Notes under the pieces: generated by a model
Database searches by the model: none
The model's input: only the letters and a program-made list of their open reading frames with translations
What the model was told of the DNA's origin: nothing
In this document: piece by piece, positions 2,723 through 33,649 of the stretch
How positions within the stretch are numbered: the stretch's first letter is position 1
Layout of the letters: every line of letters begins with the position of its first letter
Made by a program: the position numbers and the translations under genes
Assembly: GCF_003334255.1 (NCBI RefSeq)
Contig: NZ_QOWU01000057.1
Reading direction: 5' to 3' (one strand)
Length of the DNA: 33,649 bases
Source: Escherichia coli
Lineage (GTDB): Bacteria; Pseudomonadota; Gammaproteobacteria; Enterobacterales; Enterobacteriaceae

Positions 2723-3196
2723 TTAACTTAAAGAGTCTGTTTCAGGACATGAAATATCCAATCCGGGCAGACGGGTAATGATTCTGCTCATCACCACACC
2801 TGCCAGCAATGCAGGAATGATGCGGACAACGAGACTGTCACCAGAAAGAATGTTTTCAAACAACTCCGAGGAAGCCATGCCCTTAATATGTACAATAACT
2901 GCACAATAGATCTCGGTGATAACGACGCCACCTATGCCACCAGCCAGACAACGATAATTTTTCTGTGACCCGATCTTTTCCGGCAGACAGGCGACCATCA
3001 CGCCGGTTAACAATGCAGGAATAGCTCCCGTAGTAATCGACAATAAGAGAAACAATGGAAGTACCTGTATTATTACCAAAAGAACCAGCGGTTCTTTTGC
3101 GAAGAATATGTAGAGGACAAGAAACAGAACACCAATTAACGGTCCTAAAACCGCAAAATAAAGTCCGTGATGTATTACCCGACGTGAAACAGACAT
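2723..3196 (-). CDS. cbrB: CbrB (YieI), small inner-membrane protein (157 aa)
   Basis: ORF 2723..3229 trimmed to ATG at 3196 (MSVSRRVIHHGLYFAVLGPLIG…); strongly hydrophobic, several predicted transmembrane segments. Confidence 0.8.
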   Translation of the reverse strand: MSVSRRVIHHGLYFAVLGPLIGVLFLVLYIFFAKEPLVLLVIIQVLPLFLLLSITTGAIPALLTGVMVACLPEKIGSQKNYRCLAGGIGGVVITEIYCAVIVHIKGMASSELFENILSGDSLVVRIIPALLAGVVMSRIITRLPGLDISCPETDSLS

Positions 3197-3262
3197 ATCA
3201 AACACCCTTAACTTACCTTTGAGCGCCAATTTAAGCGGGGTAAGTGAAGGGAGTGTGAAGAA

Positions 3263-28973: not shown

Positions 28974-30266
28974 ATGGATATTCCCGTTAATGCAGCAAAG
29001 CCGGGGCGTCGGCGTTATCTGACGCTGGTGATGATCTTTATTACGGTAGTCATTTGTTATGTCGACCGCGCCAACCTGGCCGTGGCTTCCGCCCATATTC
29101 AGGAAGAGTTCGGCATTACCAAAGCGGAAATGGGCTATGTATTTTCGGCCTTCGCCTGGCTTTATACGCTATGTCAGATCCCCGGCGGTTGGTTTTTAGA
29201 TCGCGTAGGTTCTCGCGTGACTTATTTTATTGCGATATTTGGCTGGTCAGTGGCGACTTTATTCCAGGGCTTTGCCACGGGCTTAATGTCATTAATTGGT
29301 CTGCGCGCGATAACCGGTATTTTCGAAGCGCCTGCTTTCCCGACCAATAACCGGATGGTGACCAGCTGGTTCCCGGAACATGAACGCGCTTCTGCCGTTG
29401 GTTTTTATACGTCTGGTCAGTTTGTCGGTCTGGCGTTTCTGACGCCGCTGCTGATCTGGATTCAGGAGATGTTGAGCTGGCACTGGGTGTTCATTGTCAC
29501 TGGTGGTATCGGCATTATCTGGTCGCTGATTTGGTTTAAGGTTTATCAGCCGCCGCGCCTGACCAAAGGTATCAGCAAAGCTGAACTGGATTACATTCGT
29601 GATGGCGGCGGTCTGGTGGATGGTGATGCGCCGGTGAAGAAAGAGGCGCGTCAGCCGTTAACAGCCAAAGACTGGAAACTGGTGTTCCATCGTAAACTGA
29701 TCGGCGTTTATCTTGGGCAATTTGCGGTGGCTTCTACACTGTGGTTTTTCTTAACCTGGTTCCCGAACTATTTAACCCAGGAAAAAGGAATCACGGCGCT
29801 GAAAGCAGGCTTTATGACCACGGTGCCATTCCTCGCGGCGTTTGTCGGCGTCCTGCTCTCTGGCTGGGTAGCGGATCTGCTGGTACGTAAGGGCTTTTCA
29901 CTGGGCTTTGCGCGTAAAACGCCGATTATCTGCGGCTTGCTGATCTCCACCTGCATTATGGGCGCTAACTACACTAACGATCCGATGATGATTATGTGCC
30001 TGATGGCGCTGGCATTCTTCGGTAACGGTTTTGCTTCGATTACCTGGTCGCTGGTTTCTTCTCTGGCACCGATGCGCCTGATTGGTTTAACCGGCGGCGT
30101 GTTTAACTTCGCCGGTGGTCTGGGCGGCATCACCGTTCCGCTGGTGGTGGGGTACCTGGCGCAGGGTTACGGTTTCGCACCTGCACTGGTTTATATCTCC
30201 GCCGTCGCGTTGATTGGCGCGCTCTCTTATATCCTGCTGGTGGGCGATGTGAAGCGCGTTGGCTAA
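28974..30266 (+). CDS. dgoT: DgoT, D-galactonate:H+ symporter, MFS (430 aa)
   Basis: ORF 28929..30266 trimmed to ATG at 28974 ([22 protein letters not shown]…), GGAGA Shine-Dalgarno upstream; polytopic MFS transporter. Confidence 0.9.
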
Positions 30267-31327
30267 TCCTTCAACTGTGGAATATGTGCCACACCACTGC
30301 GCATAATCCACTTTCTTAAAGCCGGTGCGGTCAGGCATCGGCTTTTTACTATCTTGCCGAAGAGTTTTAAACGCAGTTTGCGGGTGGCGCGCCAGTAAGC
30401 GGTATTGAGCTTCTCTGGCTGCTTCAGTAACACCGAACGCAGAATGTCTGTGCTATCCAGCGCATAGCTAATCCCCTCCAGCGAGCTGGCGCTGATAAAT
30501 CCCGCCGCTTCACCAATCAGAAAGGCGTTGTCCTTACCGCAGACAAAATCCTGCCAGCGCGAGGGAAACAGCACCGTGCATTTTTCGCTTTTCACCGTCT
30601 TACCAAACTGGAACTGAAAGGCGCTCATTTTCTCTTTCAGCGTCGTGAAACGCGTCTGACCGTCTTTCATTGGATAGGCACCGCCAAAGATAAAATAACC
30701 GTCTTTGCTGATACTCCATGAATAACAGTTAGTTATCGAATTATCAAAGATGCAGGAGTAGAACGGCACCGGATGTTTCTCCGCGAACCACTGCTGGATA
30801 GCGACATATTTACGGATTTGATGATCCGGGTAGAGATGTCGCCGCACCATCGAGTTTGCGCCATCGGCACCGACCAGATAGCGGGCGGTAATATGTTGCT
30901 CCCAGCCGTCTGCACGAAAAATGACATGCCATTTATCATCCTCACGCCAGATTTTTCGGCACAGGCTGTCGTGATAAACCTCAACGCTGGCGGGGATCAG
31001 CGATTTCATCCACAAGTCGAAAGCATGGCGATTAATATTGATATAGCTTCGCTGGTAGTTACGCGTGAGCGATGCGGCGACGTCGACGGTTTTGACGCTG
31101 AAAATCTGCGGATTAGCGATCACATCGACAGGAAGCGTCAGCCCATCGCGAATAAAAGATCGCTGCGCGTCCGGTGCCAGCAGACCGCCGCAGGGTTTGC
31201 TGAAACCTTCAGTACCACACTGGTGCTTTTTATCCAGCGCGATCACCTGCATTTTGCCTGCTAACTTTCGTGCCAACGCCGATCCTGCCGGGCCGAGGCC
31301 AATAATCGCCACGTCGAAATGTTCCAT
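30263..31327 (-). CDS. cbrA: CbrA (YidS), FAD-dependent oxidoreductase, geranylgeranyl-reductase-like (354 aa)
   Basis: ORF trimmed to ATG at 31327 ([22 protein letters not shown]… = Rossmann GxGxxG FAD-binding motif); stop codon overlaps the dgoT stop. Confidence 0.85.
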
Positions 31328-31394
31328 CTTTTCACTCACATTCATCACGATGGCAAAAGACTATTGTCTGAAAGTGAAGTCCTTGTGAAGTATG

Positions 31395-32642
31395 ATGGCG
31401 GGACCCGTTTTGTATCAGGACCGCGCCATGAAACAGATAACCTTTGCTCCCCGTAATCACCTGCTCACCAATACCAATACCTGGACGCCCGACAGCCAGT
31501 GGCTGGTATTTGACGTGCGTCCTTCTGGCGCGTCGTTTACCGGCGAGACCATTGAGCGTGTGAATATCCATACCGGCGAGGTCGAGGTTATCTATCGCGC
31601 GTCACAGGGCGCACACGTCGGCGTGGTGACCGTTCATCCGAAGTCAGAGAAATATGTTTTCATCCACGGCCCGGAAAATCCTGATGAAACATGGCATTAC
31701 GACTTCCATCATCGGCGCGGAGTGATTGTTGAAGGCGGCAAGATGAGTAACCTTGATGCGATGGATATTACCGCGCCGTATACGCCAGGAGTGCTGCGCG
31801 GCGGCAGCCATGTGCATGTCTTTAGCCCGAACGGTGAAAGGGTGAGCTTTACCTATAACGACCATGTAATGCATGAACTCGATCCGGCGCTGGATTTGCG
31901 AAACGTCGGTGTTGCTGCGCCGTTTGGCCCGGTCAACGTACAAAAGCAGCATCCGCGTGAATACAGCGGTAGCCACTGGTGCGTGCTGGTGAGCAAAACC
32001 ACGCCCACGCCACAGCCTGGCAGTGATGAAATCAATCGTGCTTATGAAGAAGGATGGGTAGGAAATCACGCGCTGGCATTTATTGGCGACACACTTTCGC
32101 CAAAGGGCGAGAAAGTGCCGGAGCTGTTTATCGTTGAGTTACCGCAAGATGAAGCTGGCTGGAAAGCGGCAGGTGATGCGCCGTTAAGCGGAACGGAAAC
32201 AACCCTGCCCGCGCCACCGCGTGGCGTCGTGCAGCGACGTTTAACCTTTACCCACCATCGGGCTTATCCGGGGTTAGTCAACGTCCCGCGCCACTGGGTG
32301 CGCTGTAATCCGCAGGGTACACAAATCGCGTTTTTAATGCGAGATGATAACGGCATTGTGCAACTGTGGCTTATCTCGCCACAGGGCGGCGAGCCGCGCC
32401 AGTTAACCCATAACAAAACGGATATTCAGTCTGCATTTAACTGGCATCCGTCAGGAGAATGGTTGGGCTTTGTGCTGGATAATCGAATTGCTTGTGCCCA
32501 TGCGCAAAGCGGCGAGGTTGAGTATTTAACCGAACACCACGCCAATTCACCTTCTGCGGACGCCGTGGTCTTCTCGCCGGATGGTCAGTGGCTGGCGTGG
32601 ATGGAAGGCGGCCAGCTGTGGATCACCGAAACTGATCGCTAA
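31395..32642 (+). CDS. yidR: YidR, uncharacterised protein, DUF3748 / TolB-like beta-propeller (about 415 aa; start could be ATG 31392, 31395 or 31428)
   Basis: 416-aa ORF diverging from cbrA; WD40/TolB-like repeats (…VFSPDGQWLAW…); exact start not resolvable by eye. Confidence 0.8.
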   Translation: MAGPVLYQDRAMKQITFAPRNHLLTNTNTWTPDSQWLVFDVRPSGASFTGETIERVNIHTGEVEVIYRASQGAHVGVVTVHPKSEKYVFIHGPENPDETWHYDFHHRRGVIVEGGKMSNLDAMDITAPYTPGVLRGGSHVHVFSPNGERVSFTYNDHVMHELDPALDLRNVGVAAPFGPVNVQKQHPREYSGSHWCVLVSKTTPTPQPGSDEINRAYEEGWVGNHALAFIGDTLSPKGEKVPELFIVELPQDEAGWKAAGDAPLSGTETTLPAPPRGVVQRRLTFTHHRAYPGLVNVPRHWVRCNPQGTQIAFLMRDDNGIVQLWLISPQGGEPRQLTHNKTDIQSAFNWHPSGEWLGFVLDNRIACAHAQSGEVEYLTEHHANSPSADAVVFSPDGQWLAWMEGGQLWITETDR

Positions 32643-32643
32643 A

Positions 32644-32976
32644 TCAGTTATCAGGCATTCTGGCCGGTGGAATAACCGCATTGGTGGCTTGCGCGTTGGC
32701 TTCGCTTTTTTCAACGCGCGAGCGCACCGAGCTGTCTTTGCGGAACACATCCCACGGCAGTAAAAGCGTGTCCATCACAGCGGTAAACGGCATATCGAGA
32801 ATCGCCAGCGACTTAGTGCCCCAGTTGGTTTCATCGTCGCCAATCATGGTTGCGCTGGCGCGGGTGCCGGGATACGTTCCTTCTTTCCCTCCGGTATGGG
32901 ACATCACGCTGGAGCATCCTCCGAGTAATGTCATTCCGCTGCATATCATGAACGCTAACAACACATTTCTTATCAT
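32644..32976 (-). CDS. yidQ: YidQ, DUF1375-family outer-membrane lipoprotein (110 aa)
   Basis: ORF 32644..33051 trimmed to ATG at 32976 (MIRNVLLAFMICSGMTLLGGCSS… = signal peptide with lipobox LGGC); convergent with yidR, 1-nt gap. Confidence 0.8.
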   Translation of the reverse strand: MIRNVLLAFMICSGMTLLGGCSSVMSHTGGKEGTYPGTRASATMIGDDETNWGTKSLAILDMPFTAVMDTLLLPWDVFRKDSSVRSRVEKSEANAQATNAVIPPARMPDN

Positions 32977-33149
32977 AATAAATTCATCTGTTGATCGTGG
33001 GTGTTGGCCTGATGAGTTATAGCGATCCCTTGCTGAAAATAACATCATCATTACGTCGCACTGTGGCGGCTATCGCACTTTAACGTTTCGTGCTGCCCCC
33101 TCAGTCTATGCAATAGACCATAAACTGCAAAAAAAGTCCGCTGATAAGG

Positions 33150-33178
33150 CTTGAAAAGTTCATTTCCAGACCCATTTT
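33150..33178 (+). promoter_or_regulatory. Sigma-32 (heat-shock) promoter of ibpA
   Basis: -35 CTTGAAA (33150..33156) and -10 CCCATTTT (33171..33178) with 14-bp spacer, matching the sigma-32 consensus CTTGAAA-N13-15-CCCCATNT; about 100 nt 5' UTR follows (ibpA UTR is a known ROSE-type RNA thermometer). Confidence 0.65.
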
Positions 33179-33280
33179 TACATCGTAGCCGATGAGGACG
33201 CGCCTGATGGGTGTTCTGGCTACCTGACCTGTCCATTGTGGAAGGTCTTACATTCTCGCTGATTTCAGGAGCTATTGATT

Positions 33281-33577
33281 ATGCGTAACTTTGATTTATC
33301 CCCGCTTTACCGTTCTGCTATTGGATTTGACCGTTTGTTTAACCACTTAGAAAACAACCAGAGCCAGAGTAATGGCGGCTACCCTCCGTATAACGTTGAA
33401 CTGGTAGACGAAAACCATTACCGCATTGCTATCGCTGTGGCTGGTTTTGCTGAGAGCGAACTGGAAATTACCGCCCAGGATAATCTGCTGGTGGTGAAAG
33501 GTGCTCACGCCGACGAACAAAAAGAGCGCACCTATCTGTACCAGGGCATCGCTGAACGCAACTTTGAACGCAGGTAA
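33281..33577 (+). pseudogene. ibpA: ibpA (small heat-shock protein IbpA) truncated after codon 97 of 137 by IS1; fused reading frame adds Arg and stops at TAA 33575..33577 inside the IS1 end
   Basis: N-terminus [68 protein letters not shown]… matches IbpA up to …GIAERNFER, then the sequence switches to the IS1 terminus GGTAATGACTCC at 33573. Confidence 0.85.
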
Positions 33578-33649
33578 TGACTCCAACTTATTGATAGTGT
33601 TTTATGTTCAGATAATGCCCGATGACTTTGTCATGCAGCTCCACCGATT
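33573..33649 (-). mobile_element. insB: IS1 right-end fragment in inverted orientation (terminal inverted repeat at 33573..33595, insB 3' end on - strand 33588..33649); element body lies to the right of the window
   Basis: Exact reverse complement of window positions 1..77; begins GGTAATGACTCCAACTTATTGAT (IS1 terminal repeat as I recall it). Confidence 0.85.

Follow-up and report, generated by a model that had tools for sequence, protein, structure and literature searches.

The convergent genes yidR and yidQ lie tail to tail towards one end of a 33,649-nucleotide stretch of Escherichia coli DNA (contig NZ_QOWU01000057.1 of assembly GCF_003334255.1; hereafter the window, meaning the whole stretch that was analysed). 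On balance they are probably two independent, previously annotated genes kept in this position by compaction, YidR being a cytoplasmic enzyme or binder for acidic sugars and YidQ a stress-induced outer-membrane lipoprotein. The two genes show no sign of working together. A first-pass annotation of this DNA had proposed a possible envelope-stress role for the pair, and that proposal fits one member only: yidQ has published links to the sigmaE, Cpx and Mar/Sox responses, whereas YidR is cytoplasmic, occurs in sugar-catabolic contexts and has a carbon-source phenotype.

Both are ordinary genes of E. coli K-12, and there is nothing new in the locus itself. Strain MG1655 proved 100% identical over window positions 31200-33572 in a genome comparison, 5,418 of 5,426 complete E. 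coli genomes carry most of the query (31200-33649), and the RefSeq features at the locus are cbrA, yidR, yidQ, a ROSE element and ibpA. The coding sequence of yidR (31428-32642, plus strand; 'DUF3748 domain-containing protein' in PGAP) specifies a cytoplasmic seven-bladed DUF3748 beta-propeller of 404 residues, and that of yidQ (32644-32976, minus strand) specifies the 110-residue precursor of a YceK/YidQ-family (DUF1375) lipoprotein, as recognized by NF008628, Pfam and PGAP. The bounds first given to the pair, 31328-33051, took in the locus and both convergent genes but overran the genes at both ends. Position 31328 is the first base past the cbrA start codon (cbrA start 31327) and belongs to the cbrA-yidR spacer, and position 33051 is the first ATG of the longest yidQ reading frame (135 residues). 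The longest yidR frame, 31392-32642, has 416 residues, or 415 when counted from its second methionine, in agreement with the length of 415 reported earlier. The ATG at 31428 (MKQITF, 404 residues) is the start used by PGAP and conserved in homologues, with an AGGA 7 nucleotides (nt) upstream, and YidR homologues of 408 residues begin at MKQ with 97% query coverage. The in-frame 12-codon extension of the older 415/416-residue annotation (MMAGPVLYQDRA, 31392-31427, plus strand) is probably not translated, judging from the homologue starts, the PGAP start and its non-hydrophobic character. The start of yidQ was placed at 32976, where the NCBIfam PRK11616 model, which spans residues 26-135 of the 135-residue frame, and PGAP concur. 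The in-frame stretch upstream of it (32977-33051, minus strand) is non-coding 5' leader or promoter DNA, since the family model and all orthologues begin at Met 32976.

The AlphaFold2 model of YidR is a confident propeller (pLDDT 96.9) in which seven blades were counted from the strand pattern, so the earlier description of a TolB-like beta-propeller stands up to structure prediction at the level of a PD40/TolB-class fold. TolB chains were among the Foldseek matches to the model (E ~ 5e-9, TM ~ 0.4). The sole significant Pfam match was DUF3748 (PF12566; E = 8.6e-58, full model positions 1-123), which covers residues 75-191 of the 416-residue frame (31614-31964, plus strand). Signals for PD40, DPPIV_N and WD40 were weak and confined to the last third of the protein, the PD40-like repeats falling in the last blades (residues ~300-410 of the 416-residue frame), and the NCBIfam propeller matches were all sub-threshold, the TolB equivalog TIGR02800 scoring 17 bits against a cutoff of 343. 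YidR thus has its fold class in common with TolB and other PD40 propellers, such as the N-terminal domains of S9 peptidases, DPP4 and lasso-peptide isopeptidase, but it is a seven-bladed, single-domain protein without the N-terminal domain or signal peptide of TolB. Unlike S9-type proteins it also has no attached C-terminal alpha/beta-hydrolase peptidase domain; no Peptidase_S9 match was found by Pfam and the 404 residues are propeller throughout.

The absence of a signal peptide, noted in the first-pass annotation for the annotated start, was found to hold at both candidate starts, where the maximum Kyte-Doolittle 9-residue mean was 0.76. The long frame adds 12 polar residues, and the first propeller strand is reached right at the conserved start. 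These features indicate a cytoplasmic YidR, contrary to the premise of several Klebsiella vaccine papers, in which the protein is a surface-exposed adhesion ('hyperadherence') factor or an 'ATP/GTP-binding protein'. A surface role is stated there and protective immunity is reported (PMC11057650), but immunogenicity needs no surface exposure, the enterobacterial YidR proteins have no signal peptide, lipobox or secretion tail, and DUF3748 is the only Pfam match of YidR, with no nucleotide-binding domain. The label appears to be inherited annotation and not a tested function, and a role in adhesion is scarcely credible.

The polar residues R96, R124, H128, H130, Y143, D145, R158 and R271 (numbered from MKQ) are invariant or nearly invariant among 41 sequences of 33-82% identity, the motif A-L-R-G-G-[ST]-H-x-H forming part of this set, and they are also retained in multidomain and fusion relatives. 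The codons for R124-G-G-S-H128-V-H130 (31797-31817, plus strand) encode the family motif on a candidate active-site strand, invariant or nearly so in the 41 sequences and again in the fusion proteins; RGG[ST]HxH was also the pattern picked as most conserved by the search for related loci. The RGG[ST]HxH/Y/D/R set is missing from TolB and the other PD40 propellers. The strand map of the model puts these residues where A and C strands begin and where B and D strands end in neighbouring blades, an arrangement in which they would line the top face around the central channel. An arginine-rich pocket bearing histidine, tyrosine and aspartate suggests an acidic small-molecule substrate. On this proposal YidR would act on an acidic sugar as an enzyme or, at the least, bind one specifically; its arginines would hold the carboxylate, and its His/Tyr/Asp set would carry out acid-base chemistry such as lactone or ring opening, beta-elimination or hydrolysis.

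The same residues bear on the possibility that YidR has no catalytic role and is a scaffold, or a propeller that binds proteins or peptides like the gating domains of S9 peptidases and tricorn, perhaps linked to proteostasis through ibpAB. Faint Tricorn_N and Tricorn_2nd Pfam matches are on record, and ibpA is a constant near neighbour. However, YidR ends with its propeller and has no peptidase domain, an invariant set of four arginines, two histidines, a tyrosine and an aspartate is a pattern expected in small-molecule chemistry rather more than on a surface that binds proteins, and the neighbours and fusions of the family are carbohydrate enzymes, S9-type proteins making up only 4-5 of 136 immediate neighbours. 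A scaffold role is considered improbable.

The only published yidR phenotype is a carbon-source defect: the deletion mutant grows poorly specifically on gluconate and galacturonate. Its metabolite profile is closest to that of a dgoT deletion, and the ten genes whose expression follows that of yidR most closely include dgoT, dgoD, dgoR and dgoK (Fuhrer et al., 2017, PMC5293155). Gene order was compared in 80 Enterobacterales yidR loci, ranging from Escherichia to Serratia, Yersinia, Erwinia and Mixta, the upstream side being scorable in 75. In 30 of the 75, belonging to many genera, dgoT lies upstream of yidR on the same strand with a gap of ~51 nt. The upstream gene is cbrA, on the opposite strand, in 16 loci (gap 27-123 nt in most, -29 to 878 overall), yidA on the same strand in seven (50-177 nt) and a 2-hydroxyacid dehydrogenase gene on the same strand in six (~60 nt). 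Where cbrA is the neighbour, dgoT usually stands just past it. From this distribution we infer that yidR was ancestrally the distal gene of a galactonate unit, ~51 nt past dgoT behind a hairpin containing its ribosome-binding site, and would have been co-transcribed with dgo, until an insertion of cbrA on the opposite strand in Escherichia and Citrobacter parted the two. That insertion would have left yidR with a short spacer common to the CreB-controlled cbrA promoter, possibly together with read-through from dgo. An ancestral dgo-yidR unit fits the metabolite, co-expression and growth data of Fuhrer et al. (2017, PMC5293155).

The hairpin in the dgoT-yidR spacer (TACCCTGATGCG...CGCATCAGGGTA) has 11 bp, ends 5-9 nt before the yidR ATG and contains the yidR ribosome-binding site. 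In an alignment of L014:7950-8003 with 16 other Enterobacteriaceae loci its seven outer pairs were invariant and two inner pairs showed compensatory changes, and a U-tract was missing in most copies. It could act in processing or stabilisation, in controlling translation or as a palindrome bound by a protein. E. coli keeps no more than a remnant of the 3' arm, GTATCAGGAC, which contains the AGGA. The six loci with a 2-hydroxyacid dehydrogenase (L020, L051, L055, L060, L067 and L080) come from six genera and hold this gene in the ~1-2.5 kb upstream of yidR; three of them (L020, L051 and L055) have a second MFS transporter gene farther upstream that is only ~21-23% identical to DgoT. These genes look to be another sugar-acid-like insertion at the same site upstream of yidR.

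The growth defect on galacturonate (PMC5293155) also raises the question of whether YidR is a divergent oligogalacturonate lyase (CAZy family PL22) cutting imported oligogalacturonides in the cytoplasm. Members of PL22 are, like YidR, cytoplasmic single-domain seven-bladed propellers of ~390-400 residues, and PDB entries 3c5m and 3pe7 were the best whole-chain structural matches to the YidR model, with a PD40-type fold of similar size. PL22 acts in cytoplasmic sugar-acid catabolism, the kind of role that is proposed here for YidR. Comparison of three Ogl sequences (two from PDB alignments) with the YidR family profile gave only a single-blade, out-of-register match in hhalign at 40% probability, there was no Pfam PL22 match (Pectate_lyase22) even at E <= 10, and the profile homology does not extend past that one blade. 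H242, H287, Q350, H353 and H355, which we take to be the Mn2+ ligands and catalytic residues of PL22, were invariant in the three-sequence alignment. This Mn/His site was not mappable onto YidR, whose HxH (128/130) lies in a different blade. An oligomer lyase would moreover leave the defect on monomeric galacturonate or gluconate unexplained. Membership of PL22 was dropped, one generic blade aligned out of register being all that was recovered, and PL22 is retained as a fold analogue only; that YidR is such a lyase is very unlikely.

The wider family was searched for in 1.84 billion cluster representatives, which gave 187 clusters at E <= 1e-30 and 520 at E <= 1e-10. Neighbours of YidR in AFDB come from Enterobacterales, Planctomycetota, Bacteroidota, Phycisphaerae-type genera, Armatimonadota and prasinophyte algae. 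A hydrophobic N-terminal extension was present in 24 of 44 full-length single-domain DUF3748 representatives (with a lipobox-like site in nine of the 24) and lacking in the other 20, a pattern that divides the family into predicted exported and cytoplasmic members and puts the enterobacterial proteins in the cytoplasmic group. Fusion partners of DUF3748 include GH31, sulfatase and BNR_2 domains and type IX secretion (T9SS) sorting tails. One further protein (P0247, 1090 residues) joins a DUF3748 propeller (35-427) to an OmcA/MtrC-type decahaem cytochrome (496-1088, 413 bits), which could be a true fusion or a gene-calling artefact.

A first scan of a genome collection returned Enterobacterales only, and the more distant contexts come from individual look-ups plus a metagenome scan that took an exported homologue as its seed. 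The latter yielded 80 loci at 39-65% identity, 78 of them analysable, in which three neighbours on each side were clustered; the counts are given without a formal background model. A protein of ~745 residues with no Pfam or NCBIfam match was found in 21 of the 78 loci, 19 times directly upstream on the same strand. BNR_2 proteins occurred in 16, DHDPS/NanA/KdgD-like proteins in 11 (8 directly upstream), ceramidase-like proteins in 10, a propeller plus phosphoesterase in nine, PfkB sugar kinases in 5 + 5 (two clusters), and GDPD and SGNH lipase-like proteins in five each. The commonest Pfam family among the 136 immediate neighbour proteins was DHDPS (10), followed by BNR_2, GH16, GH67N, GH20b, GH31 and fucosidase, and the immediate neighbours of the distant DUF3748 genes are mainly co-directional with short gaps. 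Among individual loci, an SSF or MFS sugar transporter gene stands directly upstream of the DUF3748 gene, with a DHDPS-family gene adjacent, in L088 and L091; a sialidase-like BNR_2 gene overlaps its stop codon in L090; GH1, GH36 and MFS_2 genes are near it in L081, and GH31 in L093. In Bacteroidota, Planctomycetota and related phyla, DUF3748 is found in operons with sialidase-like, ceramidase-like, phosphoesterase and NanA/KdgD-like genes. In the ~745-residue neighbour family (for example L113:731-2965 and L085:2639-4906, the loci lying among L109-L165), similarity to the propellers with which Bacteroides hybrid two-component sensors detect glycans is confined to residues ~160-320 (E = 6.6e-25 to 3v9f), and for the C-terminal half no known relative was found.

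The theme running through the fusions, the neighbours and the E. coli phenotype is consistent with catabolism of acidic sugars or acidic glycoconjugates. It seems quite possible, if somewhat short of probable, that DUF3748 is an unrecognised family of carbohydrate-active propeller enzymes for such compounds, about half of them exported, with YidR as a cytoplasmic member that came to occupy the 3' end of the D-galactonate operon and its expression perhaps cross-wired to that of stress-induced yidQ through a 3' antisense overlap.

A narrower assignment would make YidR an accessory enzyme of D-galactonate metabolism, either a galactonolactone lactonase or a ring-opener or mutarotase for 2-keto-3-deoxy-galactonate or -gluconate. 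Its analogues would be the lactonases Pgl (YbhE) and PpgL and the sialate mutarotase NanM, propellers with acidic sugars as substrates that exist in cytoplasmic and periplasmic forms and whose genes lie next to those of transporters and aldolases. The conserved ~51-nt dgoT-yidR spacing in 30 loci of many genera argues for it, as do the DHDPS-type 2-keto-3-deoxy-acid enzymes and sugar transporters beside distant homologues and the division of DUF3748 into exported and cytoplasmic members, presumably as in the Pgl/PpgL family. The co-expression with dgo and the dgoT-like metabolite profile point in the same direction, but growth on galactonate is not among the reported phenotypes of the yidR deletion (PMC5293155). 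Against it, too, yidR is retained in genera without an adjacent dgo operon, and the GH31, sulfatase and T9SS-tail fusions fit a glycan-active domain better than a monosaccharide lactonase. We regard this assignment as unlikely, and return to the broader reading of YidR as an enzyme or binder for acidic sugars.

YidQ is the small DUF1375 lipoprotein that it had been said to be. It scored 211 bits with NCBIfam NF008628 (cutoff 91) and E = 2.4e-8 with Pfam DUF1375, and its precursor has a basic N-terminus, a hydrophobic core and the lipobox LLGG-C (MIRNVLLAFMICSGMTLLGG-C). The signal peptide is encoded by 32976-32917 (minus strand) and Cys21 by 32916-32914. Cys21 is invariant in 30 aligned sequences, as are G33, G37, D61, P63, D69, T70, P74 and D76. 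The segment CSS[VIM]M[ST]HTGG directly after the lipobox is unusually conserved and is kept with the lipobox across 79 loci. Under the Lol rule, a serine at position +2 predicts sorting to the outer membrane, and YidQ, with Ser at +2, is predicted to be exported via Sec, lipidated at Cys21 and sorted there. The protein has been detected in outer-membrane vesicles of a tolA deletion strain (PMC7973035).

An AlphaFold2 model of YidQ from 30 sequences was helical and of low confidence (pLDDT 65.7) and was left out of the fold search, and a PDB sequence search gave chance matches only. Near-identical E. coli and Shigella entries were the only ones among the top 120 of a homologue search, and a word-indexed search returned 821 hits only, which suggests a narrow family. 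YidQ was also compared with its E. coli DUF1375 paralogue YceK. The two proteins have in common a lipobox followed by C-[GS]-S-[IV]-[IM]-S-x-T, a later YPG and an LD[ML]PF..DT.LLP.D core; in contrast to YceK, YidQ has an extra C-terminal tail of ~35 residues (SVRSRVEKSE...IPPA) and its gene adjoins ibpA.

A place for yidQ in the responses to envelope and xenobiotic stress, with induction by the sigmaE, Cpx and Mar/Sox/Rob systems, has been documented by others. The gene belongs to the sigmaE regulon and its overexpression lowers viability (PMC2685091), it is induced along with rpoE after a cold shift (PMC4057180), and it is on a CpxR regulon list (PMC7657598). A MarA site was located between ibpA and yidQ by chromatin immunoprecipitation sequencing (ChIP-seq; PMC5684230), and RamA and SoxS bind the corresponding spacer in Salmonella by ChIP (PMC10268841). 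In the window, a marbox identical to the MarA ChIP-seq site (GCACGAAACGTTAAA, 33079-33093, minus strand) occurs once, in the yidQ-ibpA spacer, and faces yidQ (PMC5684230). Transcription of yidQ would start from this spacer, which is common to the heat-shock gene ibpA.

The earlier description of yidR and yidQ as a conserved, convergent pair was borne out. Downstream of yidR, convergent yidQ and then ibpA were found in 79 of the 80 Enterobacterales loci, a YidQ-family profile likewise detecting yidQ in 79, and in 64 of the 79 the stop-to-stop gap was -4 to +2 nt. In the window a single nucleotide separates the yidR stop (32640-32642) from the yidQ stop (32644-32646), the junction as a whole being 32640-32646. 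Conservation of this kind could be taken to mean that the genes form one envelope-stress module, a propeller plus a lipoprotein resembling TolB-Pal, co-regulated with the heat-shock locus. The synteny speaks for such a module, as do the weak PD40/TolB repeat similarity in YidR and a report that calls both genes members of the sigmaE regulon, up 3 h after the shift (PMC2685091). However, YidR lacks a signal peptide whichever start is used and so cannot encounter a lipoprotein that faces the periplasm, its 17 bits on the TolB model are far below the cutoff, and convergent genes are not one operon; its neighbours, fusions and published phenotype are all metabolic. The profile search found no YidQ-family frame in any of 94 non-enterobacterial DUF3748 loci (938 kb in total). 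A joint module is judged to have little likelihood. Tight packing makes insertion between the genes disruptive, and this is enough to explain the conserved synteny; with the pairing confined to Enterobacterales and the transcription units separate, that synteny is not evidence of shared function. Neither YidR nor YidQ was matched in an anti-phage defence library.

A promoter and terminator scan, at chance level, detected no intrinsic-terminator-like site near the yidR/yidQ junction, and RNA folds across it were unexceptional. As only 1 nt separates the stop codons and no terminator was detected there, the 3' ends of the two mRNAs would be expected to overlap. ExcludonFinder includes yidQ-yidR in its list of convergent overlapping transcript pairs from E. 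coli RNA-seq data (PMC12288877). The arrangement resembles an excludon in these respects, and an antisense interaction between the genes is possible, the 3' overlap being one that could make their expression mutually antagonistic. It differs from an excludon in that the tight spacing could simply reflect genome compaction and that the reciprocal regulation characteristic of excludons is hypothetical here.

Several points weigh against the account given above. The yidQ and yidR transcripts are both reported to rise 3 h into the sigmaE-linked response (PMC2685091), a result that would not be predicted if the genes were entirely separate and that speaks against mutual exclusion. A simple scan upstream of both genes found no match to a sigmaE promoter (GGAACTT, N15-17, TCAAA or TCTGA) with up to two mismatches in total, nor a CpxR consensus, so the sigmaE and CpxR assignments of yidQ are those of the papers alone. 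As for YidR, the gene is kept where dgo is absent or non-adjacent (Serratia, Yersinia and the loci with yidA upstream), and the dgo link is therefore not obligatory. The clustering of its conserved residues on the top face would follow from strand topology and not from coordinates, and its AFDB neighbours bear automatic names only, with no DUF3748 protein of known activity or ligand among them. The distant DUF3748 contexts are heterogeneous, including an RND pump and a TonB receptor, and the commonest distant neighbour, the ~745-residue protein, is itself uncharacterised.

The flanking genes cbrA and ibpA are as first described, with a cre tag upstream of the one and a sigma32-type promoter upstream of the other. 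Between cbrA (start 31327) and yidR (start 31428) lies a divergent control region of 100 bp (31328-31427). Promoter-like hexamers occur on both strands of it (CTGAAA-17-TATGAT, 31368-31396, plus strand; TTCACA-18-AATAGT, 31389-31360, minus strand), in a number not above chance (2 found, 2.2 expected). The cre tag upstream of cbrA (TTCACaaggacTTCAC, 31374-31389, minus strand) is a CreB-type direct repeat with the cre consensus TTCAC-N6-TTCAC, and it sits inside the spacer of the promoter-like site of yidR. There are two perfect tags in the window against 0.08 expected, the other (3244-3259, minus strand) being just upstream of an open reading frame at 2723-3229 (minus strand) that is probably cbrB. 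CreB binding at the putative tag at 31374-31389 could affect yidR as well as cbrA. The genes dgoT (plus strand) and cbrA (minus strand) converge too, their stop codons overlapping by 4 nt at 30263-30266, and they are listed as an overlapping convergent pair (PMC12288877).

On the other side, ibpA is preceded by the sigma32-type promoter CTTGAAA-N14-CCCATTT (33150-33177, plus strand). Its leader contains a ROSE_2 RNA thermometer (33215-33287, plus strand; 100.4 bits against a gathering score of 65, E = 4e-23), and Rfam recognized no family besides this ROSE element. A homopolymer 14 nt upstream of the sigma32-type -35 element (33129-33135) is A7, compared with A8 in the MG1655 record CP032667, and some natural isolates match the window exactly there. 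The ibpA gene is broken after codon 97 (...AERNFER) at junction 33572/33573, and 33573-33649 is 100% identical to an end of insertion sequence IS1 (IS1A/IS1B). The ibpA::IS1 junction was found in none of the 5,426 complete RefSeq E. coli genomes. The strain is probably without functional IbpA, and the insertion may be polar on ibpB.

Since the link between yidQ and envelope stress has been published already, the locus as such matters little. What interest is left attaches to YidR, which belongs to the conserved E. coli proteins that still lack a function. Klebsiella vaccine work uses the protein as an antigen, assuming it to be a surface 'hyperadherence' factor. The genomic contexts of DUF3748 are informative enough to let the function of the family be found, and a function for YidR would add an enzyme to a well-studied pathway neighbourhood and be the first for a family spread over several phyla. 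If DUF3748 is indeed a family of carbohydrate-active enzymes, YidR would represent a missing step in the sugar-acid metabolism of enterobacteria.

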